A stretch of 64,000 nucleotides of DNA from a virus, in the IMG/VR virus record IMGVR_UViG_3300033066_001156. The stretch is one strand, 5' to 3'. The position numbers and the translations under genes are program-made. Shown in pieces: positions 14,325-57,738 of the stretch. Under the pieces are notes generated by a model. That model searched no databases, had not been told where the DNA came from, and was given only the letters and a program-made list of their open reading frames with translations. Every line of letters begins with the position of its first letter. The stretch's first letter is position 1.

Positions 14325-14356
14325 CCATAGCCCAGAGGCGTAATTCTGGGCTATGG
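14325..14356 (+). promoter_or_regulatory. Stem-loop (11-bp perfect stem, 10-nt loop) whose 3' arm contains the DNA polymerase start codon; candidate translational operator
   Basis: ccatagcccag (14325-14335) pairs with ctgggctATGg (14346-14356); no U-tract follows, so not a canonical intrinsic terminator. Confidence 0.4.
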
Positions 14357-17300
14357 ATCTGTTTGACTTCCTTGAAGATACACAAAAAATCAAAATCGAT
14401 CTGAAGCCCTGGATGTCAGACGGGGTGCACAAGGCAATCTTGTGCACCGCTGAGATGCTCCCAAAGGTCATTGACGATTGTGTTGCAAGTGGTCTTTATG
14501 GCATTGACACGGAGGGGACGGGGTTGGATACCCGTGTCTTCGATGGGGAGACCGTAGCCAAACTTGTGGGTTGCTGCCTTAGCCCGGACGGGAAAACAGG
14601 ATACTATATCCCTCTTCGTCACAAAGTTGGTGCACAACACAATGTCCCCTTTTCTCTTTGGAAGAGGGAGATGGCTCGGCTTATCAATTCTGATGCTAGA
14701 GCCATTTTCCACAACGCAAAGTACGATCAGGAAATGCTGCAGTTCTGTGGGGGTGAGCCCGTAGGGGAGTGGGATGACCCGAAGAAGTGGGAGGATACTC
14801 TTATTCTTGCCTATCTCCGGGATACAAGGGCTAAACAGAAGGGGTTGAAATTCTTAGCTAAGACCGAACTCGACATGGAAATGATTGAGTTGGAAGACTT
14901 GTTTCCTAAAGATAAAGTCAAATCGGGTCAGCTAGACTTTAGTGAACTAGACCCATCATGGGAGGTTGTCCCATGGTATGCCGGTAGTGACGCACTCATC
15001 ACTCGAAAGTTATACGATAAGCTCGCACCAAAAGTACTGGACCCGGGTGACGGTCTTCCCGGTCAGGGTCTTATCTATGGTATTGAGAAGCTTTGTGTGA
15101 CGGCTACCCGCTGGATGGAACGGGCTCGAATTATGACCGATCAGGAGAAGGCTAAAGAGCTTATCCGAATTGGTCAGAAAGAGTGGCTGGAATCCATCTC
15201 AGAGGTATATACGTCGGCCTCTGAGATTGTCGGTCGAGATATTTCTCCTGGATATTATCGCATTCTTATGGGTCGCCAGCCGGGGTATGAGGATCAGAAA
15301 TTCGACGTATCCGTGGTTCAACCGGGATACATGGTTCGGGTGGATGAAGCTAGACTTACCGCTGATAAAAACGGTCTCGACCCTACATTCAAGGACGCTA
15401 AGAAAAAAGTCAGGGTTCAAACAATCCAGAAGCGGGTACCCTCGATTGCAACAAAGGGGGTGATGGAAGAGGTTGACTTCCCTCTAGTCTACGACATTTT
15501 AGTCCCGGAAGAATTGGGGGCACTCTTACGTGAATGTAAGGTTCCCGGTTTGACCGTTACGGAAAAGTCGGGTCAAGTTGCTACGAACCAGGAAGAACTT
15601 GAGCGTGTGCTTGAGGAAGCCGGAGACAAGTATCCTTTTGCAGCGAAGATCAAGAGGTTTCGCGAGGTTTCCAAGGCACTTGGCACATATCTCTTGCCCT
15701 TGATTGAGGACAGTGCCCCGGATGGGAGCATTCGTATTCATTACAATGCCCACAAAATTGATACCGGCCGTTTTGCAGTATCCTCTTCCAGAAACCCGGC
15801 GTTGGATGGGGGGACGAGGTTTCCTATCCACGGAACTCCAGCTACATACGATCCTAAACGCCCAGAGTGTATGGGTCGTATTCGAGAATGTATCATTTCT
15901 CGTCCTGGGAAAATTATAGCTGCCTGTGTGGCCAAAGGGGAACTGGTCCATACAGGACGTGGGTTCCTGCCCATTGAAGATGTGGTGTCTGGTGACCGAG
16001 TAGTCACGGATGATGGTTTGAGAGGCGTGACCTGGGCCGGTTACACAGGTTCCAAGCCAGTCGTGAAACTGACCACGTCTAAGGGTATCACCCTTAGATT
16101 GACCGAAGATCATCGTGTCTACACCACTGGAGATAACGGTTTGGAGTGGAAGACCGTTGGGGAGATGAAACCTGGGGATTGGGTCGTTCACGCCTGGGGT
16201 CACATTGTGGGAGGGTCTGTTGAACTACCCCCCACTCCTGTTCTCACCCCACATGAGAAAACCATCAGGACACCCTCTGTGATGACCGGAGACCTTGCTG
16301 AGTTTCTCGGTCGGTTCATGGGGGACGGTTCTATCAGCCACCTTAACGGGGTAGAGAGAAGCATCAATTTCTCTCTTGGGTTGGACGTTGACGAGCTTCT
16401 CCCTCATCTCAATGGTCAGGCCGACACCCTGTTTGGAATTTCATTTAAACACCGGGGGCGAGGGGATGTGACCTGTTCTTCTAACCCTTTGTGCCGATGG
16501 GTGGATGACGTGACGGGTAAGGGTCAAAGTGATGTTCGTGGCCTATCCGTCCCACCATCGATCATGAGGGGGGGGTCCAACATTCACGCGATGTTCCTTC
16601 GTGGACTGTTTGATGCGGATGGATCGGTAGGTTCCCGATCGGGGGATGGTCTCTCCCTTTGGGTCACCAGTCCAAAGATGGCCCTAGAAGTCCAGGTGCT
16701 CTTGCATGGACTTGGGATCCACACCAAACGGGTGTGCTCTGAGCGCACCACAAATTTCGGTCACATCGTTGGGTATGCCATCACGGTATCTGGCATTCGT
16801 CCCCTTCAGCGATTCAGGGGGTTGGTTGGGTTCACCACGCAACGGAAGAAAGACTCTCTAGACAGGTTGGTCGGTCAGTCAAGGAACCGTGACTATTCCA
16901 GCACCGTTCCCCTTGACATCGCCCGCAAAGCAGTGAGGTATCAGCGAAGGAATGGACCCATGTGTATCACCCGCGGTAGGAGAGCAGGGCGGGTTACTTT
17001 CGAGGCTCTTGAAGCTTGTTTGAAGTTCCCAACTGACACAGACGCTCTTTCATTGAATCAGATTCTAACCAAGGACTGGTTTTTCGACACTGTAGTCAGT
17101 GTCAAACCCGATGGGGAGTCCGATGTCTACGACCTACACGTACCGGAAGGGTCACGTTTCACGGTCAATTCCGTCGTAGTGCACAATTGCGATTTCTCTG
17201 GTGTAGAGCTCCGTATTGCAACCAATATGAGTCGGGAGCCAAAGTGGCTTCGGGAGTTTTTTCACTGCTCTTCTTGTGACCGTATGTTTCCGGCTGGGGA

Positions 17301-19413
17301 TGGGACTTCCACTCCTCCCCCTCCCCCTCCCTTCTGCCCCGATTGTGGGTCAGATAAAATTGGTGACCTTCATACCCTCACTGGGATCAGTATCTATGGG
17401 GATGATTCCCCTAAGAGACCGGATTGGAAGAAGCTTCGCGGTAATGCAAAATGTGTCCACCCCGACACATTGATTTTCCTTGATGGGGATAAGTCTGGAC
17501 TGGCACCCATTCGAAGTTTGCCGGTAGGGGACTTGGGTGAGTTCCATTACTCCCGGGGGTATTCGGTTCTCGGTCCTAATGGGCAATTTGTCCACGTGAA
17601 CAGTGTGTTCAATGGTGAACCGAAAGAGCTTTTCCACGTAGTCACTAGGCGGGGTATTCTCACATGCTCGGCAGAACATAGGTTCAAGCTCTCCGATGGG
17701 ACTCTGCGAAGTATTCAAGATGGTTTGAGTAAGGGGGATCAACTCGCCGAATCCCCCATTCCGACTTTGAAAATGGATGCCCCGAGCCCCATTCCTCATG
17801 GGGCCTCGGAAGACACCCCTCCTGTTTGGATCCACCCCAACTTGGACCACGCTTATTTTGCGGGCCTATTCCTCGGTGATGGGTGCAAATGTGGTACAAC
17901 TACGGTATCTCTGGCTCATGGTCAGGTAGATAAGACTGATCAGCTTGGTGTTTCTTATTCTTCGTGGCAGGATATTCTCGTTGATGCATGTGAACGAGTT
18001 GGTTTCCGTCCGGTGCGCCGCAAGATGAGTGTCTACCTCGGAAGTCGTTCCGTCATGCGGTACCTCAGCAGTCTATCGTTGGTTGATGGGGTGGGGGGCG
18101 GAAGAACCCTGAGAATTCCGCAGTGGATCCTTGATGGGGGGAGAGAGTTCATCCTGACTTTCTTGGGGGGTCTGTTTGATACCGACGGCTATATCGGAAA
18201 ACGAGACGCCTCCATGCGCTGGTGTACGAAGGATGCGGTTTTCGCCGGGCAAATTGCCGCGGTACTATCCGCCTTGGGGTTCCAACCCTCGGTGTCTCCT
18301 TCCTGGAACAAGACGTATCAACGGGACTATTTCATTGTTGGAGTGAGAGCTTCGGACATTCTATCCCTCAAACCTTATCTTCGGCATCCGGGGAAAATGG
18401 CCAGAGTTCGGGTGGTGCCGCCACACAATCTCACTCACCACAACAAAGTGCTCAAAGTCATTCCTGCAGGGGTGGGTCCATGCCGGGATGTGTCCCTCGA
18501 CTCTGAGGATCACCTCTATTGGACCAATGGTCTCGTAACCCATAATAGCACAAATTTCGCCCTGGTTTATGGTGGTGGAGGGAACGCGGTTGTTCTAGCC
18601 CTTGAGGGTGAGATTGATAAGGCTGAGGGTTGGAGAATCAAAGAAGTCTTTGACAAAACCTATAAGGGGTTGAGTGCTTGGTGGAAGGAGCAGCACAAAT
18701 TCGCTAGGCAGCATAAATTTGTTACTACTGCCTTTGGTCGCAGGTATCCTCTACCTGATATTGATCATGAGATGGGTGGGTTTCGAGCAAAGGCAGAGAG
18801 AAATGCCGTTAACGGACCCATTCAGGGCCTATCAGCCGACATAACGAAACTTGCTATGGGTCTGATTTACAAGGAGTGCAAGAAGAGGGGGTGGTTGGAG
18901 AAGGTGCATATGCTTATCACCATGCACGATGAATTGGTATTTGAGATAGATATGGATATCTTGGAGGAGGCCCTTGACACTTTCGTTAACATTATGTGTC
19001 GCAATCCTGCTCTCCTTAAATTCAAGTGGCCTATCCCGCTTACTTCAGACGTGGAGATGGGGTATTCATGGATGGTTCCTTGGGACCTAAAAAAGATTCG
19101 ACATACTGGGCAATGTCCACCAGAATTGGCTGGTTGCTTCAAGGGTATCAAGGTTAAGGATGGATCCTCAAAAGAGAGTGAAAAGCCGAAACAAAAGAGC
19201 CTTCCTATAAAGGTGTACAAAATCTCGTCTTTGAGTGTCGGGTCAGTTGAAGACCTAGCCCATATGCTTTGGTCTTCCAAGAAAGTTAAACCGGCTAATC
19301 CGGCTAGCCTCAAAATTGAGGGGCCGGATGGCGATGATCTGACCGCCTTGATGCTTGTCCTATGGGGTGGTCCCTTACCAGAAGTTGAAGCCGATGCCAC
19401 CGTCACTAATTGA
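14353..19413 (+). CDS. Family-A (Pol I-like) DNA polymerase with 3'-5' exonuclease domain, two inteins and a zinc-ribbon insertion
   Basis: Exo motifs YGIDTEGTGLD and HNAKYDQEML; motif A IIAA|C...HN|CDFSGVELRIA; motif B RGNAK|C...HN|STNFALVYGG; motif C ITMHDELVFE; Cys4 insert HCSSCDRMF...FCPDCGSD between motifs A and B. Confidence 0.92.
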   Translation: MDLFDFLEDTQKIKIDLKPWMSDGVHKAILCTAEMLPKVIDDCVASGLYGIDTEGTGLDTRVFDGETVAKLVGCCLSPDGKTGYYIPLRHKVGAQHNVPFSLWKREMARLINSDARAIFHNAKYDQEMLQFCGGEPVGEWDDPKKWEDTLILAYLRDTRAKQKGLKFLAKTELDMEMIELEDLFPKDKVKSGQLDFSELDPSWEVVPWYAGSDALITRKLYDKLAPKVLDPGDGLPGQGLIYGIEKLCVTATRWMERARIMTDQEKAKELIRIGQKEWLESISEVYTSASEIVGRDISPGYYRILMGRQPGYEDQKFDVSVVQPGYMVRVDEARLTADKNGLDPTFKDAKKKVRVQTIQKRVPSIATKGVMEEVDFPLVYDILVPEELGALLRECKVPGLTVTEKSGQVATNQEELERVLEEAGDKYPFAAKIKRFREVSKALGTYLLPLIEDSAPDGSIRIHYNAHKIDTGRFAVSSSRNPALDGGTRFPIHGTPATYDPKRPECMGRIRECIISRPGKIIAACVAKGELVHTGRGFLPIEDVVSGDRVVTDDGLRGVTWAGYTGSKPVVKLTTSKGITLRLTEDHRVYTTGDNGLEWKTVGEMKPGDWVVHAWGHIVGGSVELPPTPVLTPHEKTIRTPSVMTGDLAEFLGRFMGDGSISHLNGVERSINFSLGLDVDELLPHLNGQADTLFGISFKHRGRGDVTCSSNPLCRWVDDVTGKGQSDVRGLSVPPSIMRGGSNIHAMFLRGLFDADGSVGSRSGDGLSLWVTSPKMALEVQVLLHGLGIHTKRVCSERTTNFGHIVGYAITVSGIRPLQRFRGLVGFTTQRKKDSLDRLVGQSRNRDYSSTVPLDIARKAVRYQRRNGPMCITRGRRAGRVTFEALEACLKFPTDTDALSLNQILTKDWFFDTVVSVKPDGESDVYDLHVPEGSRFTVNSVVVHNCDFSGVELRIATNMSREPKWLREFFHCSSCDRMFPAGDGTSTPPPPPPFCPDCGSDKIGDLHTLTGISIYGDDSPKRPDWKKLRGNAKCVHPDTLIFLDGDKSGLAPIRSLPVGDLGEFHYSRGYSVLGPNGQFVHVNSVFNGEPKELFHVVTRRGILTCSAEHRFKLSDGTLRSIQDGLSKGDQLAESPIPTLKMDAPSPIPHGASEDTPPVWIHPNLDHAYFAGLFLGDGCKCGTTTVSLAHGQVDKTDQLGVSYSSWQDILVDACERVGFRPVRRKMSVYLGSRSVMRYLSSLSLVDGVGGGRTLRIPQWILDGGREFILTFLGGLFDTDGYIGKRDASMRWCTKDAVFAGQIAAVLSALGFQPSVSPSWNKTYQRDYFIVGVRASDILSLKPYLRHPGKMARVRVVPPHNLTHHNKVLKVIPAGVGPCRDVSLDSEDHLYWTNGLVTHNSTNFALVYGGGGNAVVLALEGEIDKAEGWRIKEVFDKTYKGLSAWWKEQHKFARQHKFVTTAFGRRYPLPDIDHEMGGFRAKAERNAVNGPIQGLSADITKLAMGLIYKECKKRGWLEKVHMLITMHDELVFEIDMDILEEALDTFVNIMCRNPALLKFKWPIPLTSDVEMGYSWMVPWDLKKIRHTGQCPPELAGCFKGIKVKDGSSKESEKPKQKSLPIKVYKISSLSVGSVEDLAHMLWSSKKVKPANPASLKIEGPDGDDLTALMLVLWGGPLPEVEADATVTN
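15925..17187 (+). mobile_element. Intein 1 (421 aa, LAGLIDADG homing endonuclease type) inserted in polymerase motif A
   Basis: Cys at +1 of the intein, terminal HN followed by Cys; LAGLIDADG blocks FLGRFMGDGS and FLRGLFDADGSV; excision restores KIIAACDFSGVELR. Confidence 0.85.
17452..18546 (+). mobile_element. Intein 2 (365 aa, LAGLIDADG homing endonuclease type) inserted in polymerase motif B
   Basis: RGNAK|CVHPDTL ... LVTHN|STNFALVYGG; LAGLIDADG blocks YFAGLFLGDGC and FLGGLFDTDGYI; excision restores RGNAKSTNFALVYG. Confidence 0.85.
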
Positions 19414-23318: not shown

Positions 23319-23936
23319 ATGGAATTGGACACCAGGCTCCCACTAAGTGAAACATCCAGGGAAGGCAAGGACCTTTTTTTGGAGGTTACTTTCCTTCAGG
23401 ATGACCCTAGGGGTTGGGTTGTTTATGAGTCTCGTATTTTCGATACCGATTTACCAAATACCCGTGATAATTCTCTTGGGTGGATTAAGTTCGCATACAT
23501 CCCTAAAGATAATTTTGATCGGGTTTTTCCTACACTTATGGACTATGCCATGAAAGTGGAAGGGAGGGGCTATCTTCAAGAATTGGTGGATAGTCTAGGG
23601 TTAGCGAAAGCGATCAAACAGTACGCAAAAACTGACCCTAAAATTAAGGATAGATATGCCAAGTTCCGTGATTTTTGGGTCGACAAGCCCATGCCGGAAT
23701 ATGCCTCAACCAAAACCCCACGTATGGGCGTAGGGACTATTCTCTATACCGCAACGAACAATTGGATCAAAAAGAATTTAGGTCTCCATTTGTGGGCCTC
23801 TTCGAATCAAACGGATGATGCGAAGGGGATATGGGCCAAGTTCAAAAGCAAAGGACTTAGTACAATGGAACCCCGCCCCAGACTTCTCAATGCTGCTTCC
23901 CGTAGGGTTGCACTCCGGTATTGGGTGGGAACATGA
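23319..23936 (+). CDS. Hypothetical protein
   Basis: 205-aa ORF in the same-strand gene series. Confidence 0.45.
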   Translation: MELDTRLPLSETSREGKDLFLEVTFLQDDPRGWVVYESRIFDTDLPNTRDNSLGWIKFAYIPKDNFDRVFPTLMDYAMKVEGRGYLQELVDSLGLAKAIKQYAKTDPKIKDRYAKFRDFWVDKPMPEYASTKTPRMGVGTILYTATNNWIKKNLGLHLWASSNQTDDAKGIWAKFKSKGLSTMEPRPRLLNAASRRVALRYWVGT

Positions 23937-24574
23937 CAACCTACGGAATCATCTATGTCGTCACCAACACGATCAACGGAAAACAGTACGTGGGGCAGAC
24001 GACTAAAAGTTTAGAGAAAAGATGGTCCGGTCACACTTCGGGATCTGTGGGTCATTGTAGGGCTTTGTGGGGCGCCATTCGCAAATATGGTAAGGAATCC
24101 TTCACCCTCACATCCGTGGACGTTGGTTCCAGCAAAATCGAATTGGACCATGCCGAAATGAGGTGGGTTGAAAGGCTCAATACCGTGGCACCCAATGGCT
24201 ACAATCTTACCATTGGTGGAGGGAGTGTGGGGAAACATTCCCTCGAAACTATTGAAAAACGAAGGCAAACCCTTATGGGACACCCAACTGCCCAAAAAAC
24301 GAGAGACAAAATCAGAGATGCTCAGAAGGGAAGATCCCTTTCTCCGGCTCACAAAGAAGCCCTAAGGGTGCCCAAGAAAAACAGAACGGAAGAGGGCATA
24401 GAGTCCCGGAAAGAAGCAATACGTAATGCATACGCTCGTATGACCCAAGAGAAAAAGTCGCAATTTGGACAGCATCGCGTTGGAACGAAACACAGTGAAG
24501 AAACGCTGGCAAAAATGAGAATGAAAGCTCAAGCTCGGGCTTCAAGGAGAAAAAACGATGTCCCTCTCGCATGA
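23933..24574 (+). CDS. GIY-YIG homing endonuclease with NUMOD3-like DNA-binding repeats (free-standing HEG)
   Basis: YGIIYVVTNTINGKQYVGQT (GIY-YIG), R...E and NGYNLTIGG core; C-terminal repeats GHPTAQKTRDKIRDAQKG / SPAHKEALRV / GTKHSEETLAKMRMKA. Confidence 0.8.
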   Translation: MTTYGIIYVVTNTINGKQYVGQTTKSLEKRWSGHTSGSVGHCRALWGAIRKYGKESFTLTSVDVGSSKIELDHAEMRWVERLNTVAPNGYNLTIGGGSVGKHSLETIEKRRQTLMGHPTAQKTRDKIRDAQKGRSLSPAHKEALRVPKKNRTEEGIESRKEAIRNAYARMTQEKKSQFGQHRVGTKHSEETLAKMRMKAQARASRRKNDVPLA

Positions 24575-25766
24575 CCGTCAGATCGCCTTGATGAAGTTCC
24601 TATCTCGTTTTGCCCGCAATCTTGGGGTGGGCAGGGAGACCTATGTGGTGGGTGGGGCCGTTCGCTCTTTCGCAATGGGTATGCCGATAAAGGATCTGGA
24701 CATTGTAATTGATTCAATCGCTCTGGGGGGAAAAGACTCCGATTGGTTTGCCAAGCAGCTTGCCTCTGCCATCCCTGCGAAAACCAATATCGTCACGAAC
24801 CAATACGGAGTGAGCATTTTATCCGTAAAAGGTACGTGGGTGTTAGATGGTATTGATCTAGATGGAGAAGTGATCGAGATCGCGAACGCTCGCAAAGAGA
24901 GTTACGGCACTGGCTCTAAGGGGTACAAGCCAACCGAAGTGGAGCCCTCGACTATCCAAGATGACATCTCGCGCCGGGATTTTTCGTTCAACACTCTTCT
25001 TTGGCGACTCCAGGATCTTGTTCACGGCCCTGAATACGCGGAAATTGTTGATCTTACGGGTGTGGGAAAAGCACATCTGGAGCAGCGATTATTGAACACT
25101 CCATTAGACCCAGACAAGACTTTTCAGGACGATGCTACGAGAATTCTCCGGGTGGTGAAGTTTTATCTTCGGTTCCATTTGAAAATCGCACCCGAAGTTG
25201 AATCTTCGATTCGCCGTAACGCTGGAGCACTTCGTAAGGTGCCTTGGGAAGCCGTAGCAAAGATCCTTGTGGGGGATATTCTGAATTCCCCACAAGCAAT
25301 GAAGGGGATGAGGGTCATGCGTGACCTTGGCATTCTCGATGTTCTGGTAGAGATGATCCGGGATACACCCCCTTTCGCCGCCTATTTGACTCGGCAATTA
25401 GCCTCCGGAAATCACTCCGTTGAGTTACTGCTAGAATTGGCGGATTTGGGTATTGCGGGTAGGGTTATATCTTTCTTGAGTGGTGCCCAAAGAGCTACTT
25501 TCAAGTCCCTCACGCAAGGAATGGGACACGAAGAGGCCCGTCAATTCCTTGAAGCTCTAAGTAACCCTAAATTGGAGAGCACCCCTCTTATTGAGGAGTT
25601 CAATCTTCAAGGTAGGGACCGTGGCATTATTGTTCCGTATGCCCGGGAAGAGATGCTTATTGATCCCTCTCTGGCATTAGATCCGGCGGGGCTTACGGAT
25701 GCCGTCCGCCGCAAACTTCAAGTTACTCGCCGGGTAGCAACTCGATTCATGTCGTTTTCGACTTGA
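24558..25766 (+). CDS. cca: tRNA nucleotidyltransferase (CCA-adding enzyme)/poly(A) polymerase-family protein
   Basis: Head-domain signature VVGGAVRSFAMGMPIKDLDIVI (GGxVRD..LG...D.D) and RRDFSFNTLLW (RRDFTxNA). Confidence 0.75.
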   Translation: MSLSHDRQIALMKFLSRFARNLGVGRETYVVGGAVRSFAMGMPIKDLDIVIDSIALGGKDSDWFAKQLASAIPAKTNIVTNQYGVSILSVKGTWVLDGIDLDGEVIEIANARKESYGTGSKGYKPTEVEPSTIQDDISRRDFSFNTLLWRLQDLVHGPEYAEIVDLTGVGKAHLEQRLLNTPLDPDKTFQDDATRILRVVKFYLRFHLKIAPEVESSIRRNAGALRKVPWEAVAKILVGDILNSPQAMKGMRVMRDLGILDVLVEMIRDTPPFAAYLTRQLASGNHSVELLLELADLGIAGRVISFLSGAQRATFKSLTQGMGHEEARQFLEALSNPKLESTPLIEEFNLQGRDRGIIVPYAREEMLIDPSLALDPAGLTDAVRRKLQVTRRVATRFMSFST

Positions 25767-25781
25767 TACCAACTATCGAGT

Positions 25782-28415
25782 GTGACTCTTCAACGAACGG
25801 CTCACATTTTTGAAGACCAACGGCCCCTAACCGGCCCATGGTTTCTTTGGGACAAGGGTCAAGGGAGATTGACCGGGTCTTTTTCTCCGGTTGCTGGTGC
25901 CTCTATTCTGGCCTTTGTGGACCCTTCTCGTGGGATAGTCGACCTGGATCCCGATTACCTGAAAACGCAAACCAGATACCCTGGTCTTTCTAACTTCAAT
26001 GGCAATAATCGACCTAAGGATTCCTGGACTATTCCTTACGGGTCGAGTAAACTCTCTGGCTCACCCCGTCTTGTCAGAAACATTTTCAAAACCCTCCTTA
26101 AATCCAACGCTCTAAGTGAGGATTGGAAAATCGAGAACTCCCCAGAGTATAGGGGTCAGAGTGTTGGGGACGTTCTCAGGGAGAACCGCCCAGATCCAGT
26201 GGATGAAATATCCTCTAAGTCTGTTGGATCCGTCATTCTTTATCACGGGACGAGTGCCAAACGTTGGGACACAATTAAGGTAAAAGGTCTAAAGCCTGGG
26301 TCCCCTACTGGATTCGGAGAGGACCCCTACATTGATCAGGTGAAAGGGTACTCCGACCGCAATATCTATTTGTCTTCATCTATCCCGGAAGCTGAAAAAT
26401 ATGCCACAAGAGCTGCAATCGTCGATCGGTCGAAAGCGGTAGTCCTGGCCGTAACTGTGAATGATTTCACTAGATTCCTTCTGGATGAAGACACCGCGGG
26501 TGTCCTAGAGTTGGATGGGTGGCGGTATCAATTCTCGGGTGATGCCTACCAAATACAGGAAGATGGGAGGGTCTCAATTAAGAAATGGCGTTTGGGCCCT
26601 AACGCTTCATACATTCAGGATTTGTTCCAACGGAACACTTTGCTCGGACTCCGGAAGGGCAAAACAATCGCCTATCGTGGGGCTATTCGACCTTCCAATC
26701 TTAAGGTAGTTGAAATCTATAAGCCGGTGAAGATTAAAAACGACCCGAAGTACCATCACACTACTGCTGATTCGGAGTCCTTTGCAGAAGGGATGAGAAA
26801 AGTGCGGGAAAATATGACATACCCGAAAAAAGCCTCCGTTACGGGGTTCCCGGAATTTGAGATTGGGAGAGTGAAGTTTATTCTGATGGTGGATAGGCCG
26901 GATCTTGTTCCATCTTACATGACTTACTTCACGCGAGCTTACAGAGTCATCAAGAATGGTGGGTTTGACAAGTTCTGGTATGGGTTGGTTTTCCTTAGCC
27001 CGGATTTGGAAACCTTATCCGAAGTGAAGATTCGCTCCTACGAGGCTTCCGGGTATAAACGCCATTTTGTCGAGCATCGTGCGGGTTACTATATATCTGA
27101 TCAGGACATTATGGCTTTTACTCAACCTCTCAGCTCATGGTTGGTTAATTCCATGGTCCACGAAATAGGCCATAGGTATTGGTTCAAGGGGATGGGGTCG
27201 GAACAACGTCTTCGGTTTCAACACCTCATCAAATTGCCAAAAGTTGTAAAGCCCCCGGTCATCATTCCGTTCAGTAAGGCTACGGATGTGATGGATAAGA
27301 TTGACGGATTTGCAAACGTAGTCAAGGCCGTGCTAAAGAAGTTTCTCTCCACCCGCATAACCTTCTATCCGAAAATCCTGAAAGCATTCGATACCCCACT
27401 GTTTGAAGCTGGTCGTATTTTCCATCGCAATCTTACGGATGTACTTCAAGAGCTTGGTGTTAGATATAACTCAAAATTAGATGCTTCAAGGGAGATGGTT
27501 TTTACTGCCGGGTCAGGATTTTTTCGGCGCATGTCCGAAGCCCCTGAGTTTCTCAATCGGCAGATGTCTACCTACATGGCTTCGGATACCGGAGATACTC
27601 TCACACAAGAGGCGTTAGCTGCTGAATTCAAGCGACAACAGAAAATCTGGGTGGCCGACACTTTGAGACAGCTTGATGATGTCGTGGATGTAGCCTACGG
27701 CTACGCGGGCTTTGCTGTTCGCACACATAATGAAGAGGAAGAGGCGGAGTACACCAATCGCCTGAACGCCATTCCTGGGGGGGAAATAGAGCCCGTATCG
27801 GACTATGGTCAAAGCAACATCGTGGAGGCTTTCGCCGAAGCTTTTGTCTATTACCTGATGGGTGATAGTATGAGCTACGATCAGAAGGAAAGTTTCAAGT
27901 CTGTTCTGACACGGACGGCTGACCTGAGCCCACCTTTAGGGGGTGGTCCTTGTCGTGTTGTGGATAGAATTCTCAAAACGGTTAGAGACCCAAGGTTAAG
28001 AAACACCATGGTGGAGGAGGTAGAGGGTGGTCACTCTCTACCCAATTTTGAGGCACGTAAAGTATATCAGTTTGAGACTGAAAAAGGTAGTGCCTTCAAA
28101 AGTTTCTCCATCACCCCACATGCTCAGTATCGGATGGATTTGAGGGGTATCACTGTCAAAGATGTTGCTCAGGCATTGGATTCATTTGCCGCCCGTCTGG
28201 TTTCCGTCAAAGGTACCCCGGCGTTTGAGTGGTACATGAAACAGGAAACCATAACCTGGATGGATCCAAGGACAAGACTTGAGGTGGCTTTTGGTATGGG
28301 GGACGGCAATCTCAATATTATCACCACATATTGGAAGGGGAAGAAAGATCCTCCTCCTACCAACTGTAGAGTGGAACGAGTTGCTGGAAGATATCTTACT
28401 GCTTCTTCTTGCTAG
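25782..28415 (+). CDS. Two-domain protein: N-terminal ART-fold domain (Tpt1/KptA-like HGT motif) plus C-terminal anthrax-lethal-factor/MtfA-like zinc metallopeptidase domain
   Basis: GTG start; SVILYHGTSAKRWDTIKVKGL...NIYLSSSIPEAEKYATRAA resembles KptA LYHGTASRFLDEIKKQGL...YVHLSADEATARK; HEIGH at about aa 470 and downstream EAFAEAFVYY as in LF HEFGH...EFFAEAF. Confidence 0.65.
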   Translation: MTLQRTAHIFEDQRPLTGPWFLWDKGQGRLTGSFSPVAGASILAFVDPSRGIVDLDPDYLKTQTRYPGLSNFNGNNRPKDSWTIPYGSSKLSGSPRLVRNIFKTLLKSNALSEDWKIENSPEYRGQSVGDVLRENRPDPVDEISSKSVGSVILYHGTSAKRWDTIKVKGLKPGSPTGFGEDPYIDQVKGYSDRNIYLSSSIPEAEKYATRAAIVDRSKAVVLAVTVNDFTRFLLDEDTAGVLELDGWRYQFSGDAYQIQEDGRVSIKKWRLGPNASYIQDLFQRNTLLGLRKGKTIAYRGAIRPSNLKVVEIYKPVKIKNDPKYHHTTADSESFAEGMRKVRENMTYPKKASVTGFPEFEIGRVKFILMVDRPDLVPSYMTYFTRAYRVIKNGGFDKFWYGLVFLSPDLETLSEVKIRSYEASGYKRHFVEHRAGYYISDQDIMAFTQPLSSWLVNSMVHEIGHRYWFKGMGSEQRLRFQHLIKLPKVVKPPVIIPFSKATDVMDKIDGFANVVKAVLKKFLSTRITFYPKILKAFDTPLFEAGRIFHRNLTDVLQELGVRYNSKLDASREMVFTAGSGFFRRMSEAPEFLNRQMSTYMASDTGDTLTQEALAAEFKRQQKIWVADTLRQLDDVVDVAYGYAGFAVRTHNEEEEAEYTNRLNAIPGGEIEPVSDYGQSNIVEAFAEAFVYYLMGDSMSYDQKESFKSVLTRTADLSPPLGGGPCRVVDRILKTVRDPRLRNTMVEEVEGGHSLPNFEARKVYQFETEKGSAFKSFSITPHAQYRMDLRGITVKDVAQALDSFAARLVSVKGTPAFEWYMKQETITWMDPRTRLEVAFGMGDGNLNIITTYWKGKKDPPPTNCRVERVAGRYLTASSC

Positions 28416-36148: not shown

Positions 36149-36580
36149 TCACAGGTCCAGGAATTGAAGCTCCTCGTAGCTGAGGGTGCAGTCCCCTTTG
36201 ATATAGGCTAGGTTGCGCTCAACCCTCTCAAGCCTGCTGATTGACTTTTTTTCTTTATCCATAGCGTCATTCTCAGCCTGTAAACTTGCTAGTACCCCGG
36301 CCCCGACAACTAGTTCCGATGAGTTCTTTCCCTCGAACTGGGGTTGGGATACGCTGTAATAGGTGGCGTTGTTGGAACGGGAGTCCTTAGCCTGCCTTAG
36401 CAAGTCCACCAGAATAGCATCCGTAATTTTGTTCTCTTGCCGAATTTTATCAATCCTGACCGCTCTCTCCGCCACTTTGGCTCGGAGCTTATCAATTTTC
36501 GCAAGAATGGCGTTTCCTAGCGCGTCACGCGGGATTATGTAGGTGAAGTCGCCAAAAAGATTGCTGGGAATGTGGTCCAT
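36149..36580 (-). CDS. Hypothetical protein
   Basis: 143-aa ORF, last gene of the minus-strand block; divergent from trpS. Confidence 0.4.
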   Translation of the reverse strand: MDHIPSNLFGDFTYIIPRDALGNAILAKIDKLRAKVAERAVRIDKIRQENKITDAILVDLLRQAKDSRSNNATYYSVSQPQFEGKNSSELVVGAGVLASLQAENDAMDKEKKSISRLERVERNLAYIKGDCTLSYEELQFLDL

Positions 36581-36641
36581 AAAATACCTCTGTGTGTGTT
36601 ACCACAGAATCACCCCACACTCTAAATCAGTAATCCCCACC

Positions 36642-37616
36642 ATGAAAATTTCTCTTTCAGGCATCAAACCTACGGGATCCCCGCACCTGGGAAATCTCTA
36701 TGGGATGATTCTTCCCGCAATTGCTCTGCAGGAAACGCATCGGTCGCTCTATTTCTTAGCAGATTACCACGCTCTCACCACGGCTAGGAACCCGACTGAG
36801 GTTCAACGGCATAGTTTGGAAATAGCTGCTACTTTTCTTGCTTTTGGTTTAGACCCTGATGGTAATTCTATTCTCTTTCGCCAGAGTTCCGTCCCTGAGG
36901 TTCATGAGCTCTCTTGGATGCTTTCGTGTGTCACCGGAGTGGGGACAATGAATCGTTGCCACGCTGTAAAAGCAGCCGAAGCAACGGGTGCCAGTATGAA
37001 TCTTGGTACCTACACCTACCCGGCGTTGATGGCCGCCGACATTCTTCTTTATGGAGCCGATGTGGTTCCCGTGGGTAGGGATCAGCATCAACACGTTCAA
37101 GTGGCCCAGGAGATGGCAACTCATTTCAACGTGTTTTATGGGCCAACGTTGAAAGTCCCGGAGGTTTTGATCTCACCCACGGCTACCGTCATTGGGTCCG
37201 ATGGACAGAAGATGGCAAAATCGAGGGGGAATCATTTACCTATTTTTGCGAGCGATGGGGATATAGCTCGATATGTGCAAAAGATGAAAACGGATTCCAC
37301 TCCTTTGGAGTCTCCAAAAGACCCTGGAGAATGCCCCGTCGCTCAATTGTTTCGTGTTGTTGCCCCACCCTCCGAAGTTGCTGATTTGGAGCGTCGTTAT
37401 TGGGAAGGTGGCTACGGTTATGGCCATGCAAAATCTCGACTGCTCGAAGCCCTGATTGATTTCATTGGTCCCCGACGCTCTGAATATCGCCGGTTGATGG
37501 ACGATCCCGTCACAATTGAGATGTATCTCCAACGGGGAGCAATAGAAGCTAGATCAGAAGCGTCTAAAATCATCCCGAAAGTACGTCAGGCTGTTGGTCT
37601 TCCTCGTAATCCTTAA
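36642..37616 (+). CDS. trpS: Tryptophanyl-tRNA synthetase (class I aaRS)
   Basis: HIGH-type PTGSPHLGNLYG, GRDQHQHVQVAQEMA, KMSKS-type KMAKSRGN; start taken at MKISLSGIKPTG. Confidence 0.85.
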   Translation: MKISLSGIKPTGSPHLGNLYGMILPAIALQETHRSLYFLADYHALTTARNPTEVQRHSLEIAATFLAFGLDPDGNSILFRQSSVPEVHELSWMLSCVTGVGTMNRCHAVKAAEATGASMNLGTYTYPALMAADILLYGADVVPVGRDQHQHVQVAQEMATHFNVFYGPTLKVPEVLISPTATVIGSDGQKMAKSRGNHLPIFASDGDIARYVQKMKTDSTPLESPKDPGECPVAQLFRVVAPPSEVADLERRYWEGGYGYGHAKSRLLEALIDFIGPRRSEYRRLMDDPVTIEMYLQRGAIEARSEASKIIPKVRQAVGLPRNP

Positions 37617-41246: not shown

Positions 41247-42065
41247 ATGAAATACAGCAGAGAACATGATGAAGTGGTCCCGGAAAGTCCTATCGAGGAT
41301 TCTTGTCTGAGACTTGGTCTACCGAAGTGGCCTGCAATGCTGGTCCAGGGGGATTCAGTAACCCCGGATCAAGCCCGCGAGATTATCCGAAGAACCGATG
41401 TGTCGTTTCTTCGGGGTATTTGGGGCAATCAGCGAGATGTGGTTACGGCTATTGCCAATATTCTTCGGATGCCCATCTCCCCGGAACCGGGCTCCGGGAA
41501 TTTGGAGGTGTCAAAGCACTGGGAAGCTCGTGATGCATGGGTGGCATCTTGGGGTCCGTTAGACCTTTCCTATATTGGGAATGACTGGGTGTGTTCTACG
41601 TACGTGTACGGGCCTAATGGATGGTGCCACCCTGACGGTACCATTTCCTATCTGAAAAATGTTGGTAAGTGGCCATCCGTCTCGGATCTGGCTCGGGACT
41701 GGATTATGGTCGCCGAGGCGTTTCCTTTCCTGTCTTTGACGGCAACGTTTTTTGACAGGGAATCTTGCGAAGATGACCTTGAGCCAGTTTTTACCTTGAG
41801 TGTGATGGGGGGAAGTGTGACGGCCTACCCAGGGGGCCCAACAGCTATGGCTTTCCCCACGGTCAAAGAAGTTTTCAACTATGGATCTGAATGTGGCCTC
41901 CCTCGATCATGGTTCGAGGACTGGGCAAAAGATCGTTTCCCACCAGCGAGGGTGGCATTCCGGTTCCTGACATTGCGTGCAATTGAACCCCACGATATAA
42001 GACTCCTTCAAAAGTGGTCAGAGATGCTTGGGAAAGCGTTTGGTGGTACTTTTACCTCCCCCTGA
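41247..42065 (+). CDS. Hypothetical protein
   Basis: 272-aa ORF. Confidence 0.45.
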   Translation: MKYSREHDEVVPESPIEDSCLRLGLPKWPAMLVQGDSVTPDQAREIIRRTDVSFLRGIWGNQRDVVTAIANILRMPISPEPGSGNLEVSKHWEARDAWVASWGPLDLSYIGNDWVCSTYVYGPNGWCHPDGTISYLKNVGKWPSVSDLARDWIMVAEAFPFLSLTATFFDRESCEDDLEPVFTLSVMGGSVTAYPGGPTAMAFPTVKEVFNYGSECGLPRSWFEDWAKDRFPPARVAFRFLTLRAIEPHDIRLLQKWSEMLGKAFGGTFTSP

Positions 42066-47775: not shown

Positions 47776-47849
47776 TGCAGGATGGAGCAGTTTGGTAGCT
47801 CGTCAGGTTCATACCCTGAAGGTCGAGGGTTCAAATCCCTCTCCTGCGA
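47776..47849 (+). tRNA. tRNA-Met (anticodon CAU; could alternatively be read as Ile via lysidine)
   Basis: Cloverleaf folded by hand: acceptor tgcagga/tcctgcg (U1:G72), D-stem gagc/gctc, anticodon stem tcagg/cctga with loop ttCATac, variable aggtc, T-arm gaggg-TTCAAAT-ccctc, discriminator A; CCA not encoded. Confidence 0.7.
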
Positions 47850-47874
47850 CCGGGTTGATGGTAGTTTGACCTAA

Positions 47875-56351: not shown

Positions 56352-56861
56352 ATGCAAGACAAACTCATTGAGTCCCTGGAGAGGGTTCTTGTTGACAGAG
56401 ACAGATCCATTCAAGAGCTTAGGGGGGTTGTTGAATCTTTACAAGCCCTGCTGGAAAAATCAAAATCTGCTTGGTGCCTGCCCAGGATTGGACAGGACAA
56501 CCCGAATCTACCACTTCCTCGATTGGAGATGGAGTGGGTAGACGAGACTCAAAAACCATCACCCCCCTGGACCTGTTATATGGTTGAATACAGATTGGTT
56601 CAGGGTTGTTTATCTGGTAAAGTTCTCTTTTCCCCTTTGGGGGTAACCAGAGTCAAGGGTGGGGTGCACGAATGTCCGTGGGCCTTAGACAATGGCAGAG
56701 TGGATTTGCCTTTTGGGGACGGCCCGAGCGCTTGTTTTGACTCTGGCCATTTGAATCTCCCACTCTATCTTATCACCCCATCTAGCCCACCAATAGAAGT
56801 AAATGCTGAGGACTATGGGCCCTATCAGTATCGTAAGGGTCAACAGCAACGCAGAGGCTAA
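56352..56861 (+). CDS. Hypothetical protein
   Basis: 169-aa ORF. Confidence 0.4.
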   Translation: MQDKLIESLERVLVDRDRSIQELRGVVESLQALLEKSKSAWCLPRIGQDNPNLPLPRLEMEWVDETQKPSPPWTCYMVEYRLVQGCLSGKVLFSPLGVTRVKGGVHECPWALDNGRVDLPFGDGPSACFDSGHLNLPLYLITPSSPPIEVNAEDYGPYQYRKGQQQRRG

Positions 56862-56862
56862 A

Positions 56863-57738
56863 ATGGGATATAGGCACATTCCTACCACAAGTCACCGGGA
56901 TTCTCTTCCGATTTTTCATTTTGATAAAGTCTATTGTCTGGAGAAAATTGATGGGACTTCGGCGCACGTCTCGTGGTCAAATGGTTCCTTGACCTTCTCT
57001 CCCGGCGGGGCTTCCGCGGAAGCCCTTGAGAAGCTGTTTGATAAGGACAAGCTCACCGAATACTTCACTTCTTTGGGCCACCCCAAGGTCACCATTTATG
57101 GTGAAGCTTATGGTGGCAAGGTTCAGAAGATGGGATCTCGCTATGGGTCCGCACTCCGATTTGTTGCTTTTGACGTTAAAGTTGGGGAAGAGTGGCTAAA
57201 TGTCTCGGATGCTGCTATTTTCGTGGAGAAAGCGGGTCTTGAGTTTGTACCCTACAAAATCATCCCTATGACGCGAGAAGCCATTGATGCAGAGAGGGAT
57301 GCACCATCCGTTCAGGCTGAGAGGAATGGGATGGGGACCAATCAGGATAGGGAGGGTGTTGTCCTTCGCCCTCTCCTGGAGTTCTATTACCAGGGGGATG
57401 TGATCCGGGTCAAACACCGCCGTCCGGAGAATCGTGAGACATTTTCAGTTCAGCCTTTAGCCACAGAGGCTCAGGAAGTTCTCACGGGCGCTAAGGCTAT
57501 TGCCCAAGAATGGGTCACACCCGCTAGGTTGAATCACGTTATGGATCATCTGATCGCTACCCTGGGTCGTGAATTGGAGATGAGGGATACCCCCCAAGTC
57601 CTTGCCGCTATGCAAGAAGACGTGTACCGGGAAGCGGCCGGTGTCGTAATTGAATCTAAAGAAGCAACCCACGAGATCCGTACGAAAACACGTCTGCTAT
57701 TCCACACACATCTTCAATCAAAGGTACCATGCATCTAG
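56863..57738 (+). CDS. ATP-dependent RNA ligase (Rnl2-like nucleotidyltransferase)
   Basis: Motif I EKIDGTSAH (KxDG), TIYGEAYGGKVQ, EGVVLRPL (motif IV-like), VIRVKHRR (motif V-like K-x-K); start MGYRH with upstream GAGG. Confidence 0.65.
   Translation: MGYRHIPTTSHRDSLPIFHFDKVYCLEKIDGTSAHVSWSNGSLTFSPGGASAEALEKLFDKDKLTEYFTSLGHPKVTIYGEAYGGKVQKMGSRYGSALRFVAFDVKVGEEWLNVSDAAIFVEKAGLEFVPYKIIPMTREAIDAERDAPSVQAERNGMGTNQDREGVVLRPLLEFYYQGDVIRVKHRRPENRETFSVQPLATEAQEVLTGAKAIAQEWVTPARLNHVMDHLIATLGRELEMRDTPQVLAAMQEDVYREAAGVVIESKEATHEIRTKTRLLFHTHLQSKVPCI

Follow-up and report, generated by a model that had tools for sequence, protein, structure and literature searches.

A phage protein joining an ADP-ribosyltransferase fold, a lethal factor/MtfA-type zincin and a probable BECR module, encoded between a CCA-adding enzyme and a cREC gene

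The DNA analysed here, called the window, is a stretch of 64,000 nucleotides (IMG/VR record IMGVR_UViG_3300033066_001156) from an uncultivated large phage. The source element encodes a helicase that is 71% identical to that of the huge phage LR745208.1, together with inteins, a homing endonuclease and proteins with PHROG and Pfam RNA-ligase matches. The gene under study is a single open reading frame (ORF) for 877 amino acids in the ORF listing of the window, with a GTG start, and it sits among replication, nucleotide and RNA-metabolism genes (Table 1). A CCA-adding enzyme is encoded immediately upstream, while the downstream cREC gene is convergent and overlaps the stop codon of the 877-aa gene by 4 nt. 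The RNA-related neighbours to which the initial annotation had pointed are real: a CCA-adding enzyme, cREC, an RNA ligase, an aminoacyl-tRNA synthetase and a tRNA-Met were all found in the window. No virion genes were recognised within these 64 kb.

Table 1. Features of the locus and its surroundings (positions in the window)
Feature	Position	Strand	Details
CCA-adding enzyme (tRNA nucleotidyltransferase family, 402 aa)	24558..25766	+	PolyA_pol 5.5e-14, PolyA_pol_RNAbd 1.3e-4
877-aa ORF	25782..28415	+	
Module A, N-terminal sub-domain	25782..26222	+	residues 1-147; beta-rich, few helices
Module A, ADP-ribosyltransferase (ART) fold	26223..26822	+	residues ~148-347; key: H155, Y196, Y207, D228, D235-E236-D237
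Module B, gluzincin core, N-terminal part	26823..27236	+	residues 348-485; H460-E461-I-G-H464-R465
Helical insertion	27237..27782	+	residues ~486-667, about 180 aa; between HExxH helix and third-ligand helix
Module B, gluzincin core, C-terminal part	27783..27917	+	residues 668-712; S-D-Y675-G-Q-S-N-I-V-E682-A-F-A-E686-A-F
Module C	27918..28367	+	residues 713-862; probable BECR-fold (RelE/ParE superfamily, DUF4258-like) RNase/RNA-binding domain
C-terminal delimiter tag	28377..28394	+	R866-V-A-G-R-Y871, then LTASSC and stop codon
cREC (cyclic-phosphate processing receiver), 152 aa	28412..28870	-	Pfam cREC_REC 1.4e-23
Trp/Tyr-type aminoacyl-tRNA synthetase	36543..37616		
tRNA-Met	47776..47851		
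RNA ligase	56803..57738		

The ORF and the motifs first quoted from it could all be located. The VILYHGTSAKRWDTIKVKGL motif occupies residues 151-170, with YHGTS at residue 154, and NIYLSSSIPEAEKYATRAA occupies residues 194-212; the region given initially, about 160-240, was thus close but slightly off. HEIGH lies at 460-464 and EAFAEAF at 682-688. By contrast, the C-terminal module (713-862), the separate N-terminal domain (1-147) and the insertion of ~180 aa within the zincin had been missed. A protein with the same 877-aa architecture and 98% identity (P0001) occurs on 3 contigs, which rules out an assembly chimera as the origin of the fusion, and the GTG start is supported by the identical start position of module A in P0004, P0005 and P0006. 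The protein probably comprises three modules, all of which retain the active-site residues predicted for them: an ART (module A), an LF/PPEP/MtfA-type zinc metallopeptidase (module B) and a probable BECR module (module C). No Pfam family, PTS_2-RNA, ATLF and DUF4258 included, reaches its gathering cutoff on this protein.

Module A was modelled with AF2 at a pLDDT of 91. Its N-terminal sub-domain contains strands at residues 9-13, 20-26, 29-33, 41-47 and 52-54, and helices at 95-107, 128-133 and 139-145; within it, R65 is at least 90% conserved in 33 homologs. At its extreme N-terminus, a degenerate copy of the delimiter tag described below is also seen (R5-T-A-H-I-F10).

The remainder of module A, residues ~148-347, has the ADP-ribosyltransferase fold in this model, as had been proposed for the N-terminal half of the protein. 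All 50 Foldseek matches listed are ARTs, six of them at E<=1e-3 and with probabilities up to 1.0. Pertussis toxin S1 is the top match in the pdb set (E 1.2e-4, probability 1.0), followed by TreTu/TreX, PltA, Tpt1/KptA, cholera toxin, PARP2 and DarT1, and probabilities of 0.99-1.0 are reached with pertussis toxin S1, Rhs TreTu/TreX, Tpt1/KptA and others. The TM-scores are modest (0.3-0.5 on target length), and the alignments span about 140-270 columns, mostly 170-215, of the 347-residue model. In the 33 homologs, which share 27-66% identity with the window protein, H155-G-T-S, Y196, R210, D235-E236-D237 and Y298 are invariant, so the ART motif is not a chance occurrence. The same holds for D228, and at least 90% of these homologs share Y207. 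Module A is predicted to be an NAD+-dependent ART with an H-Y-acidic configuration.

A more specific assignment, to the Tpt1/KptA clade, had been suggested for this region. In effect, the HGT strand-helix does match Tpt1: a profile search against PDB sequences returns almost exclusively Tpt1 structures (6e3a, 6ede, 8tfz, 7kw8 and 9ld3; best E 0.007), the first strand-helix of Tpt1, 'LYHGT...I..kGLxPG', is nearly identical in module A, and L-Y-H155-G-T-S...G169-L-K-P172-G is invariant in the homologs. PTS_2-RNA is also the best Pfam match of the window protein (E 0.004). Nevertheless, beyond common membership of the ART superfamily, the similarity ends after this strand-helix, and inclusion in the Tpt1/KptA family (PF01885) was rejected. 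The family profile gives 15.9-17.6 bits (E 0.004-0.014) over positions 80-123 of 177 only, against a gathering cutoff of 26. Where the second strand of Tpt1 reads R-x-x-V-H-L-S (visible as 'YVHLS' in the 8tfz alignment), that of module A reads x-N-[IV]-Y196-L-[ST], with an invariant Tyr in place of the His and a variable residue (R/H/K/Y/N) before N194. Judged by conservation in the 33 homologs, the Tpt1 R-H-R-R tetrad is absent, as R65 and R210 are the only conserved Arg residues, H155 is the only conserved His, and the upstream region shows neither a conserved Arg-His pair nor the extra Arg residues. Module A also lacks the N-terminal RNA-binding lobe of Tpt1, carrying an extra domain of ~147 aa with a different secondary structure, and it has the invariant acidic residues D228 and D235-E236-D237. 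The Tpt1 clade is not known to have a catalytic acid; such an acid is expected in the protein- or base-modifying H-Y-[ED] ARTs.

The H...Y-x10-Y spacing and the invariant acidic residues are shared with PARP and ART-PolyVal (the Tox-ART-HYD2 clade). One of these acidic residues may be the catalytic acid that H-Y-[EDQ] ARTs (PARP, diphtheria toxin and ART-PolyVal) carry in strand 5. An hhalign comparison pairs H155/Y196/Y207 with H862/Y896/Y907 of the PARP1 core, a pairing that serves as a lead only. Foldseek, on the other hand, places pertussis-toxin-type ARTs above PARPs. Relatives of module A match the PARP, Tpt1 and ART-PolyVal families about equally in Pfam scans, with PARP found in 21 of 33 (best 1.9e-5), PTS_2-RNA in 20 and ART-PolyVal in 10 (best 2.5e-4); the window protein itself reaches neither the PARP nor the ART-PolyVal model.

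The zincin that was initially recognised in the second half of the protein is well supported. Module B has the LF/MtfA-type fold with its zinc-binding and catalytic residues, and peptidase activity is predicted. H460/E461/H464, Y675 and E682 align to the HExxH, Tyr728 and Glu735 of anthrax lethal factor (LF), which makes Y675 the candidate catalytic Tyr and E682 the candidate third zinc ligand. In the PDB profile alignment the distal motif falls on the LF segment 'TSYGRTNEAEFFAEAF', where the counterpart of D-Y675-G-Q-S-N-I-V-E682-A-F-A-E686-A-F is S-Y-G-R-T-N-E-A-E-F-F-A-E-A-F. Twelve homologs with 30-46% identity keep H460, E461, H464, Y675, G676, E682, F684, A685 and E686 invariant, and the motif is thus not due to chance. 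In the native protein, Pfam ATLF (PF07737) scores 11.9 bits, with a gathering cutoff of 27.4; removal of the insertion raises this to 17.5 bits for the spliced core (E 0.0036), which matches the profile at positions 63-174 of 193, and 8 of the 12 homologs match the family (best E 5.8e-4). The structure of module B resembles solved LF/PPEP-type members (MEROPS M34) as well as MtfA (MEROPS M90). With LF and PPEP it shares the HExxH and the distal Y-G-x-[ST]-N-x-x-E-x-F-A-E-x-F helix. However, identity is just 13-18% and sequence scores stay under threshold; unlike in LF, the two halves of the active site are split by the helical insertion, and the 877-aa protein has no PA-binding domain.

LF itself carries an ART-like domain N-terminal to its protease, an inactive domain of the VIP2 type, and an anthrax-LF-like architecture had been proposed for the phage protein. 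This specific proposal was rejected, since the H-Y-acidic set is complete in the phage ART and the modules move independently of one another. The likeness in domain combination is convergent and arose independently by module shuffling.

Module C is probably a BECR (RelE-like, DUF4258-related) endoribonuclease or RNA-binding module; the literature treats DUF4258 as RelE/ParE/BECR. DUF4258 gives 14.4 bits (E 0.049; cutoff 25) on the window protein, at residues 777-800 only, and reaches E <=1e-3 in 6 of 54 relatives (best 4.5e-5). Invariant residues are H780, R784, D786, R788 and C862, and a T-T-Y-W-K-G strand lies near the end. The secondary structure in the AF2 model, three helices followed by three strands, agrees in its arrangement with the PBECR active-site description (PMC5512222). 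A BECR fold is expected to have one or more N-terminal helices, with the catalytic His among them, ahead of a sheet of 3-5 strands. As in DUF4258, RelE-ParE and PBECR proteins, there is a conserved His in an N-terminal helix (I-T-P-H-A-Q-Y-R-M-D-x-R), and the three-stranded sheet after it ends in a conserved T-T/S motif. Fold searches and the PDB profile search did not confirm the BECR fold. In contrast to RelE-ParE toxins, module C has a ~65-aa N-terminal extension ('ADLxPPLGGGPC') in which 'PPLGxxGGPC' is invariant and a Cys pair is conserved, lacks an antitoxin partner, and serves as a promiscuous fusion module rather than a stand-alone toxin.

The protein ends in a short peptide, RVAxR[YF], that recurs in this genome and in relatives. 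A strict form of the motif (RV[AV].[RKE][FYH]) is found 3-6 residues before the stop codon in four window proteins, and the upstream CCA-adding enzyme ends in the same tag, RRVATRFMSFST. The tag is strongly enriched and placed at boundaries: 155 relatives contain 79 copies where 1.5 are expected, at termini and at module junctions, with 46 of the 79 within ~20 residues of a terminus and 33 internal. Synonymous codons vary among the copies, and AF2 places a low-confidence terminal helix at the tag. No conserved delimiter peptide was found by a targeted term search of PMC5512222 or by a string search of the literature. A role as an address or processing peptide is proposed in the main reading given below. 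In the 877-aa protein, no RVAxRY copy is present at the A/B or B/C junctions, and, consequently, tag-directed cleavage would not separate its modules.

Conservation of the neighbourhood favours an RNA- or translation-centred role. A CCA-adding enzyme lies immediately upstream of homologs of the 877-aa protein in four related loci (L001, L002, L004 and L005), it is fused in frame to modules A and C in P0005 and P0011, and in L004, as in the window, a cREC gene lies convergent downstream. Module A is missing from the loci with the closest synteny, L002 and L004, which do encode the CCA-adding enzyme, modules B and C, and cREC; neither the CCA-adding enzyme nor cREC thus requires the ART as a partner. 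Reports of cREC proteins come only from settings of RNA repair and ADPr>P processing and link them to KptA-type ARTs, and the association of cREC, CCA-adding enzyme and RNA ligase matches that described for phage KptA systems (PMC9503650). An involvement in RNA-end processing, originally offered as an alternative, is the reading that the gene context supports most.

The modules themselves are highly mobile. Relatives of the protein (769 metagenomic representatives at E<=1e-3) show them shuffling independently as A+C, B+C, A+GNAT, C alone, tandem C-C and CCA+A+C. The fusion partners in 54 multi-domain relatives include SWIM (7), PolyA_pol (6), Topoisom_I (5) and InPase (3), with HAD_SAK_1, tRNA_lig_CPD, SOD and ChaC found once each. 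LF-like MPTase, H-Y-D ART, PBECR and InPase are hub domains of the polyvalent proteins (Iyer et al. 2017, J Bacteriol; PMC5512222), and here an ART, a zincin and a BECR-like module are joined in one phage ORF. The 877-aa protein is therefore read as a polyvalent protein in the sense of these authors, acting together with the CCA-adding enzyme and cREC in the RNA/translation arm of phage-host conflict; the probability of this reading as a whole is estimated at about 0.6. Like the described polyvalent proteins (PMC5512222), it strings unrelated effector-type catalytic domains in one polypeptide, and its close relatives show extensive domain shuffling and InPase fusions. Unlike them, its three modules fall under existing Pfam cutoffs, those of ART-PolyVal and ATLF included, and its association with CCA-adding enzymes and cREC is strong and conserved; moreover, polyvalent proteins usually lie beside virion or conjugation (T4SS) genes, whereas this one lies beside replication and RNA-metabolism genes.

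In such a protein, the BECR module might recognise or cut RNA, most plausibly tRNA or ribosome-bound RNA, and the ART might move ADP-ribose from NAD+ onto a target of the same pathway. This target could be a host protein or, if the ART works as Tpt1 does, a terminal phosphate on RNA. Cleavage of a host protein may be the task of the zincin; alternatively, it may trim and activate partner proteins that bear the tag. The C-terminal RVAxRY would be an address or processing tag, carried as well by the CCA-adding enzyme and by further proteins encoded in this genome.

Part of the same evidence could be accommodated by a dedicated NAD+-dependent machine for tRNA 3'-end repair or maturation, although this is unlikely. 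The BECR module would cut or recognise damaged tRNA ends, leaving a 2',3'-cyclic phosphate that cREC would open; the ART would strip the 2'-phosphate as Tpt1 does, yielding an ADP-ribose 1''-2'' cyclic phosphate also processed by cREC; and the CCA-adding enzyme would rebuild the 3' end, with the zincin merely regulatory or processing. By sequence, the HGT strand-helix is closer to Tpt1 than to any other solved protein, and the CCA-A-C fusions, the conserved CCA adjacency and the neighbouring cREC, with its published link to KptA and ADPr>P (PMC9503650), fit such a pathway, as do the fusions of relatives to HAD_SAK_1 and tRNA_lig_CPD and the RNA ligase, aminoacyl-tRNA synthetase and tRNA of the window. 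Against it stand the missing Tpt1 tetrad and N-terminal lobe, the Tyr in place of the second-strand His with its PARP-like spacing, the invariant acidic residues and the loci that have the CCA-adding enzyme, B+C and cREC without an ART; the protease would also be left without a role. Furthermore, many partners of module C (topoisomerase IB, SOD, ChaC and SWIM) are unrelated to RNA repair, which favours the generic multi-effector reading over a dedicated pathway.

Delivery as a virion-packaged, injected anti-host effector, the main idea of the initial annotation, appears similarly improbable. The LF-like protease would cleave a host defence or translation factor, the ART would modify host proteins like T4 Alt, and the RVAxRY tag would be a capsid-targeting or cargo-loading peptide. 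Short tags with such functions are known from the T4 capsid-targeting sequence and encapsulin cargo-loading peptides, which a terminal tag shared by diverse enzymes may resemble. In one related locus (L006), a capsid-like gene is closely followed by a stand-alone module A gene that ends in the tag and by an ORF of 212 aa that also bears it, but the capsid match is weak. For polyvalent proteins that contain MPTase, ART and PBECR domains, delivery along with the DNA has been predicted and sometimes shown (PMC5512222). Nevertheless, no virion gene was recognised near the 877-aa gene, whose neighbours serve replication, nucleotide and RNA metabolism, and MuF or portal fusions are absent among the 54 relatives.

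Least probable is a self-processing polyprotein system, in which the zincin would cut RVAxR/[YF] and so free or activate modules of its own and neighbouring proteins. The tag, being basic and aromatic, would broadly suit the substrate preferences of LF-type proteases. The internal tags stand at module junctions, directly preceding modules, the zincin is encoded in the same loci as the tag, and MPTase domains of polyvalent proteins have been predicted to play just such a part, through autoproteolytic release (PMC5512222). However, the 877-aa protein lacks the tag at its internal junctions, cleavage at the many near-terminal copies would remove few residues, and conservation at the termini is more in keeping with a binding tag than with a site of cleavage.

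The 877-aa protein encoded by the target ORF, which the ORF listing gives as a single frame with a GTG start, is best read as a polyvalent multi-enzyme protein that, together with a CCA-adding enzyme and cREC, belongs to the RNA/translation arm of phage-host conflict. The probability of this reading is estimated at about 0.6, while the naming of any specific substrate is doubtful. The initial annotation had described two modules. Judging from BLAST and phmmer comparisons with homologs, the protein is instead built of three mobile ones: A (residues 1-347), B (348-712) and C (713-877). All the motifs quoted by that annotation were found in the protein (YHGTS at 154, NIYLSSS at 194, HEIGH at 460 and EAFAEAF at 682), and the assignment of A to the ADP-ribosyltransferase (ART) fold and of B to the zincins is, taken jointly, highly probable. 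In effect, a motif-level guess has become a structural assignment, that of a phage chain with an apparently intact ART and a protease of the LF/PPEP/MtfA type. What is new here is three uncatalogued module families, a link to tRNA-end enzymes and a delimiter tag; the polyvalent class itself is known.

The presence of an ART fold in the N-terminal half, as first proposed, is well supported. From 33 sequences, AlphaFold gives a confident model of module A (pLDDT 91, pTM 0.89), and every Foldseek match listed against the PDB is an ADP-ribosyltransferase, including pertussis toxin S1 (E 1.2e-4, probability 1.0), the Rhs toxins TreTu/TreX, PltA, Tpt1 (6e3a, 8.1e-3), TkoKptA (probability 0.99), cholera toxin, PARP2 and DarT1. 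These matches span about 140-270 columns, most of them 170-215, of the 347-residue model, in which residues 1-147 form a separate beta-rich domain. Across 33 homologs with 27-66% identity to the window sequence, H155-G-T-S, Y196, R210, D228, D235-E236-D237 and Y298 are invariant.

By contrast, the proposed membership of module A in the Tpt1/KptA clade had to be abandoned. Tpt1 structures do dominate the PDB matches of the family profile (seven of the top eight in one search, eight of the top nine in another; best E 0.007), but this similarity is confined to the first strand and helix, 'LYHGT..I..kGLxPG', and ends there. The Tpt1 strand R-x-x-V-H-L-S is replaced by x-N-[IV]-Y-L-[ST], and the family also departs from Tpt1 in having an invariant acidic cluster. 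Upstream of the strand-helix, neither an Arg-His pair nor any further conserved Arg or His was found in the 33 homologs. A bona fide Tpt1 is ruled out on the catalytic tetrad, on how the lobe is built and on the His of the second strand. When the homologs are compared individually with Pfam, 21 of 33 match the PARP catalytic domain (best 1.9e-5), 20 match Tpt1/KptA (best 1.3e-3) and 10 match ART-PolyVal (best 2.5e-4). Module A is consequently an ART with a predicted intact H-Y-acidic configuration, standing between the PARP/ART-PolyVal and Tpt1 families. In a profile-sequence alignment, H862, Y896 and Y907 of the PARP1 catalytic core pair with H155, Y196 and Y207, which is a lead only.

For module B, the call of an LF/MtfA-type gluzincin likewise stands. 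Among 12 homologs with 30-46% identity, no variation is seen at H460, E461, H464, R465, Y675, G676, E682, F684, A685 and E686. HEIGH and EAFAEAF are separated by an insertion of approximately 180 residues, since 15 homologs among the matches listed have a short form in which the region equivalent to ~353-485 is joined directly to ~668-711; AlphaFold predicts that the insertion consists of long helices. Once it is removed, the core of the window's own module matches Pfam ATLF (E 0.0036, profile positions 63-174 of 193), and ATLF and Peptidase_Mx are matched by 8 and 10 of the 12 homologs, respectively. In addition, a PDB profile alignment places 'SDYGQSNIVEAFAEAF' on 'TSYGRTNEAEFFAEAF' of LF, so that Y675 corresponds to LF Tyr728 and E682 to Glu735, the third zinc ligand. 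The full module B profile returned only coiled-coil noise from the PDB, and in Foldseek with a B+C model (pLDDT 92.4) the insertion overwhelmed the result.

Module C is probably a BECR RNase-type domain. The window copy matches DUF4258 weakly (residues 777-800, E 0.049), 6 of 54 multi-domain relatives match it at <=1e-3 (best 4.5e-5), and DUF4258 is treated in the literature as part of the RelE/ParE BECR superfamily. The module has a helix with invariant H780, R784, D786 and R788 ('ITPHAQYRMDxR'), followed by three strands, the last of which carries a conserved T-T-Y-W-K-G. This pattern fits the active site described for phage PBECR RNases, namely a His within the N-terminal helix together with a C-terminal Thr/Ser (PMC5512222). 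Structural and PDB-profile searches gave no confirmation of BECR, the match to an alpha-lytic protease pro-region (E 0.21) being judged noise, and the assignment is no more than probable.

The fusion of the three modules is genuine, as the same 877-aa architecture occurs in a metagenomic relative, P0001, with 98% identity and on three contigs, which rules out an assembly chimera. Moreover, the invariance of key residues among divergent homologs indicates that the motifs are under selection. The modules are found in many other arrangements: A+C in P0004 and P0006, B+C in P0002 and P0003, A with GNAT in P0009, an AAT-like N-terminal domain followed by a CCA-adding enzyme and A+C in P0005 (1205 aa), and InPase followed by an unassigned region and A+C in P0007. 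Module C also occurs alone (~180 aa), as a C-C tandem and at either end of proteins of up to 2308 aa, and the A|C junction of P0004 is the exact point at which B is inserted in the target. Polyvalent proteins have as their hub domains a zincin of the LF-like kind, an ART with an H-Y-acidic site and a BECR RNase, and extensive shuffling and InPase fusions are typical of them (Iyer et al. 2017, PMC5512222). The resemblance to LF thus arises as a side effect of a strategy general to phages; contrary to what had been suggested, the architecture is not shared with anthrax LF, and the polyvalent protein is the correct frame.

All three modules are large families known almost entirely from metagenomes. 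A word-index search seeded with the module A alignment gave no new homologs and, for this reason, 1.84 billion cluster representatives were searched exhaustively, yielding 769 relatives at E<=1e-3. Against 50,697 phage genomes deposited in GenBank, tblastn gave no match for the whole target, the ART core or module C, A and C having none even at E<=0.01; the only match was that of the short-form B core to an uncultured 485-kb phage, LR745208.1, which also has the helicase closest to that of the window (71% identity). At this locus (L009), a 560-aa short-form zincin is flanked by the degenerate tags LVDRFL and SVADRFL. None of the present Pfam, NCBIfam or PHROG models covers A, B or C, which leaves annotation gaps. 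A phmmer search with the whole target against the PDB gave only a noise match to a poly(A) polymerase, NCBIfam matched neither the target nor the other tag-bearing proteins, and PHROGs matched the target only with families of unknown function (phrog_13493, E 4e-4, in the ART region).

The tag itself is a short peptide, RVAxR[YF]. Four window proteins carry it 3-6 residues before the stop (the target, the CCA-adding enzyme and ORFs of 205 and 390 aa), where about 0.005 would be expected by a rough estimate from typical amino-acid frequencies and ORF count; in a fifth it is internal. In the 155 relatives P0001-P0155, 79 copies of the strict motif were counted where 1.5 are expected. Of these copies, 23 stand 5-12 residues from the N-terminal end, another 23 are within 20 residues of the C-terminal end, and the remaining 33 are internal, at module boundaries wherever the modules on either side were assignable. 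Extended, the consensus reads [LS]-[AP]-x-R-V-A-x-R-[YF]-[LQA]. Unrelated ORFs in the genomes of the relatives likewise have the motif at their termini. The five copies in the window vary at synonymous codon positions, so selection acts on the peptide, and a DNA-level repeat or regulatory element is ruled out. No paper with the tag strings was found in the searched literature.

The tag may serve for docking or as a cargo tag, or else be the site at which MPTase domains, the LF-like zincins of polyvalent proteins, are predicted to process proteins. If the latter, the target could be a self-processing polyprotein, an alternative for which the copies at module boundaries speak; the mostly terminal placement favors docking or cargo. 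A virion-injected effector, the earlier proposal, would agree with a cargo tag but found no support, and neither did the likeness to LF architecture that accompanied it. Along with the polyvalent reading, it is conceivable, if improbable, that the peptide is a tag as yet undescribed, used across the genome in a clade of huge phages for addressing or processing. It would give a common fate to a CCA-adding enzyme, ART, LF-like zincin, BECR RNase, topoisomerase IB, pyrophosphatase and others, which might be loaded into the capsid, assembled as a multi-enzyme complex or cut by the LF-like protease encoded alongside. In such a system, the target would act with the CCA-adding enzyme as an NAD+-dependent device for tRNA-end surveillance or repair. 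In any case, the tag is a concrete, synthesisable candidate for the question of how polyvalent proteins are processed or targeted. Should the LF-like domain cut it, the two would be a new pair of sequence-specific protease and site; should a capsid or scaffold protein bind it, it would be a cargo-loading tag. Both would have uses in protein engineering.

Two further observations concern the tag. A 788-aa protein downstream of P0005 (locus L001) has two LF-like zincin modules, HEMGH and HELGH, with 'SERVADRYLTAG' between them and 'MRVASRYQVNSGH' at its end, so the protease module has been duplicated within the system. In the window, an SPFH/Band-7 protein (Pfam 7.4e-27) directly precedes the 390-aa protein, which ends in RVATRYLYQ. 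SPFH proteins form large cage-like assemblies and, for this reason, this one might be the tag receptor, which is pure speculation.

Features of the window and of two related loci (coordinates of L001 and L009 proteins are those of the locus)
Feature	Sequence	Coordinates	Strand	Remarks
Target ORF	window	25782-28415	+	877 aa
Tag copies	window	5501-5518, 23904-23921, 25731-25748, 28377-28394, 41949-41966
SPFH/Band-7 protein	window	3416-4333
Tagged ORF	window	4358-5530		390 aa
Tagged ORF	window	23319-23936		205 aa
CCA-adding enzyme gene, split	window	23319-25766
GIY-YIG/NUMOD3 homing endonuclease	window	23921-24574		splits CCA gene
SNF2-type helicase	window	5547-8594		1015 aa; intein with LAGLIDADG homing-endonuclease domain
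Family-A DNA polymerase	window	14353-19413		1686 aa; intein with LAGLIDADG homing-endonuclease domain
Class-I Trp/Tyr-type aminoacyl-tRNA synthetase	window	36543-37616
tRNA-Met	window	47776-47851
RNA ligase (PF09414)	window	56803-57738
Sigma-70-type factor	window	60529-61296
CYTH domain protein	window	61293-61961
Large ORF	window	94-2955		953 aa
Large ORF	window	44898-47351	-	817 aa
Large ORF	window	48589-56070		2493 aa
Two-zincin protein	L001	5411-7777		788 aa
Short-form zincin locus	L009 (LR745208.1 270861-283289)	5266-6948, 7025-7582		ORFs; 560-aa zincin

The gene neighborhood ties the target to RNA. The CCA-adding enzyme gene lies directly upstream and the convergent cREC gene directly downstream, with a 4-nt overlap, and the order PolA ... 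CSD ... [CCA enzyme][B+C]<-[cREC] ... Dam, TK is kept in the related loci L002, L004 and L005; L001 has an in-frame fusion of the CCA enzyme with A+C, and the protein after it contains B. Of the 54 multi-domain relatives, 6 have PolyA_pol, and HAD_SAK_1 and tRNA-ligase CPD domains are also seen among them. A strict Tpt1-like repair pathway, a further alternative, would agree with the report that cREC occurs only where RNA is repaired or ADPr>P is processed, together with ARTs of the KptA type (Iyer et al. 2022, PMC9503650), but module A is not a Tpt1, CCA, B+C and cREC are present in the closest relatives while an ART is not, and further fusion partners in the 54 relatives (topoisomerase IB, SOD, ChaC, SWIM, InPase) are unrelated to RNA repair. 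For the polyvalent reading, the recurrent fusion and synteny with the CCA-adding enzyme and cREC link a PARP/Tpt1-like ART, and likewise a RelE-like module, with the tRNA 3'-end biology of huge phages.

By its genes, the window resembles a segment of a huge phage. Its aminoacyl-tRNA synthetase, tRNA-Met, RNA ligase, sigma-70-type factor and CYTH protein are a set typical of such phages, and it also encodes a DnaB-like helicase, a thymidine kinase, a Dam methylase, a GIY-YIG endonuclease and a CSD protein. The DNA polymerase intein recurs in L002 and L004. A domain noted at the split CCA locus looks GNAT-like by eye only, with no Pfam family match. Finally, three very large ORFs without a Pfam match, of which only that of 953 aa has PHROG matches (marginal, to a family of unknown function), may encode virion or other novel proteins.
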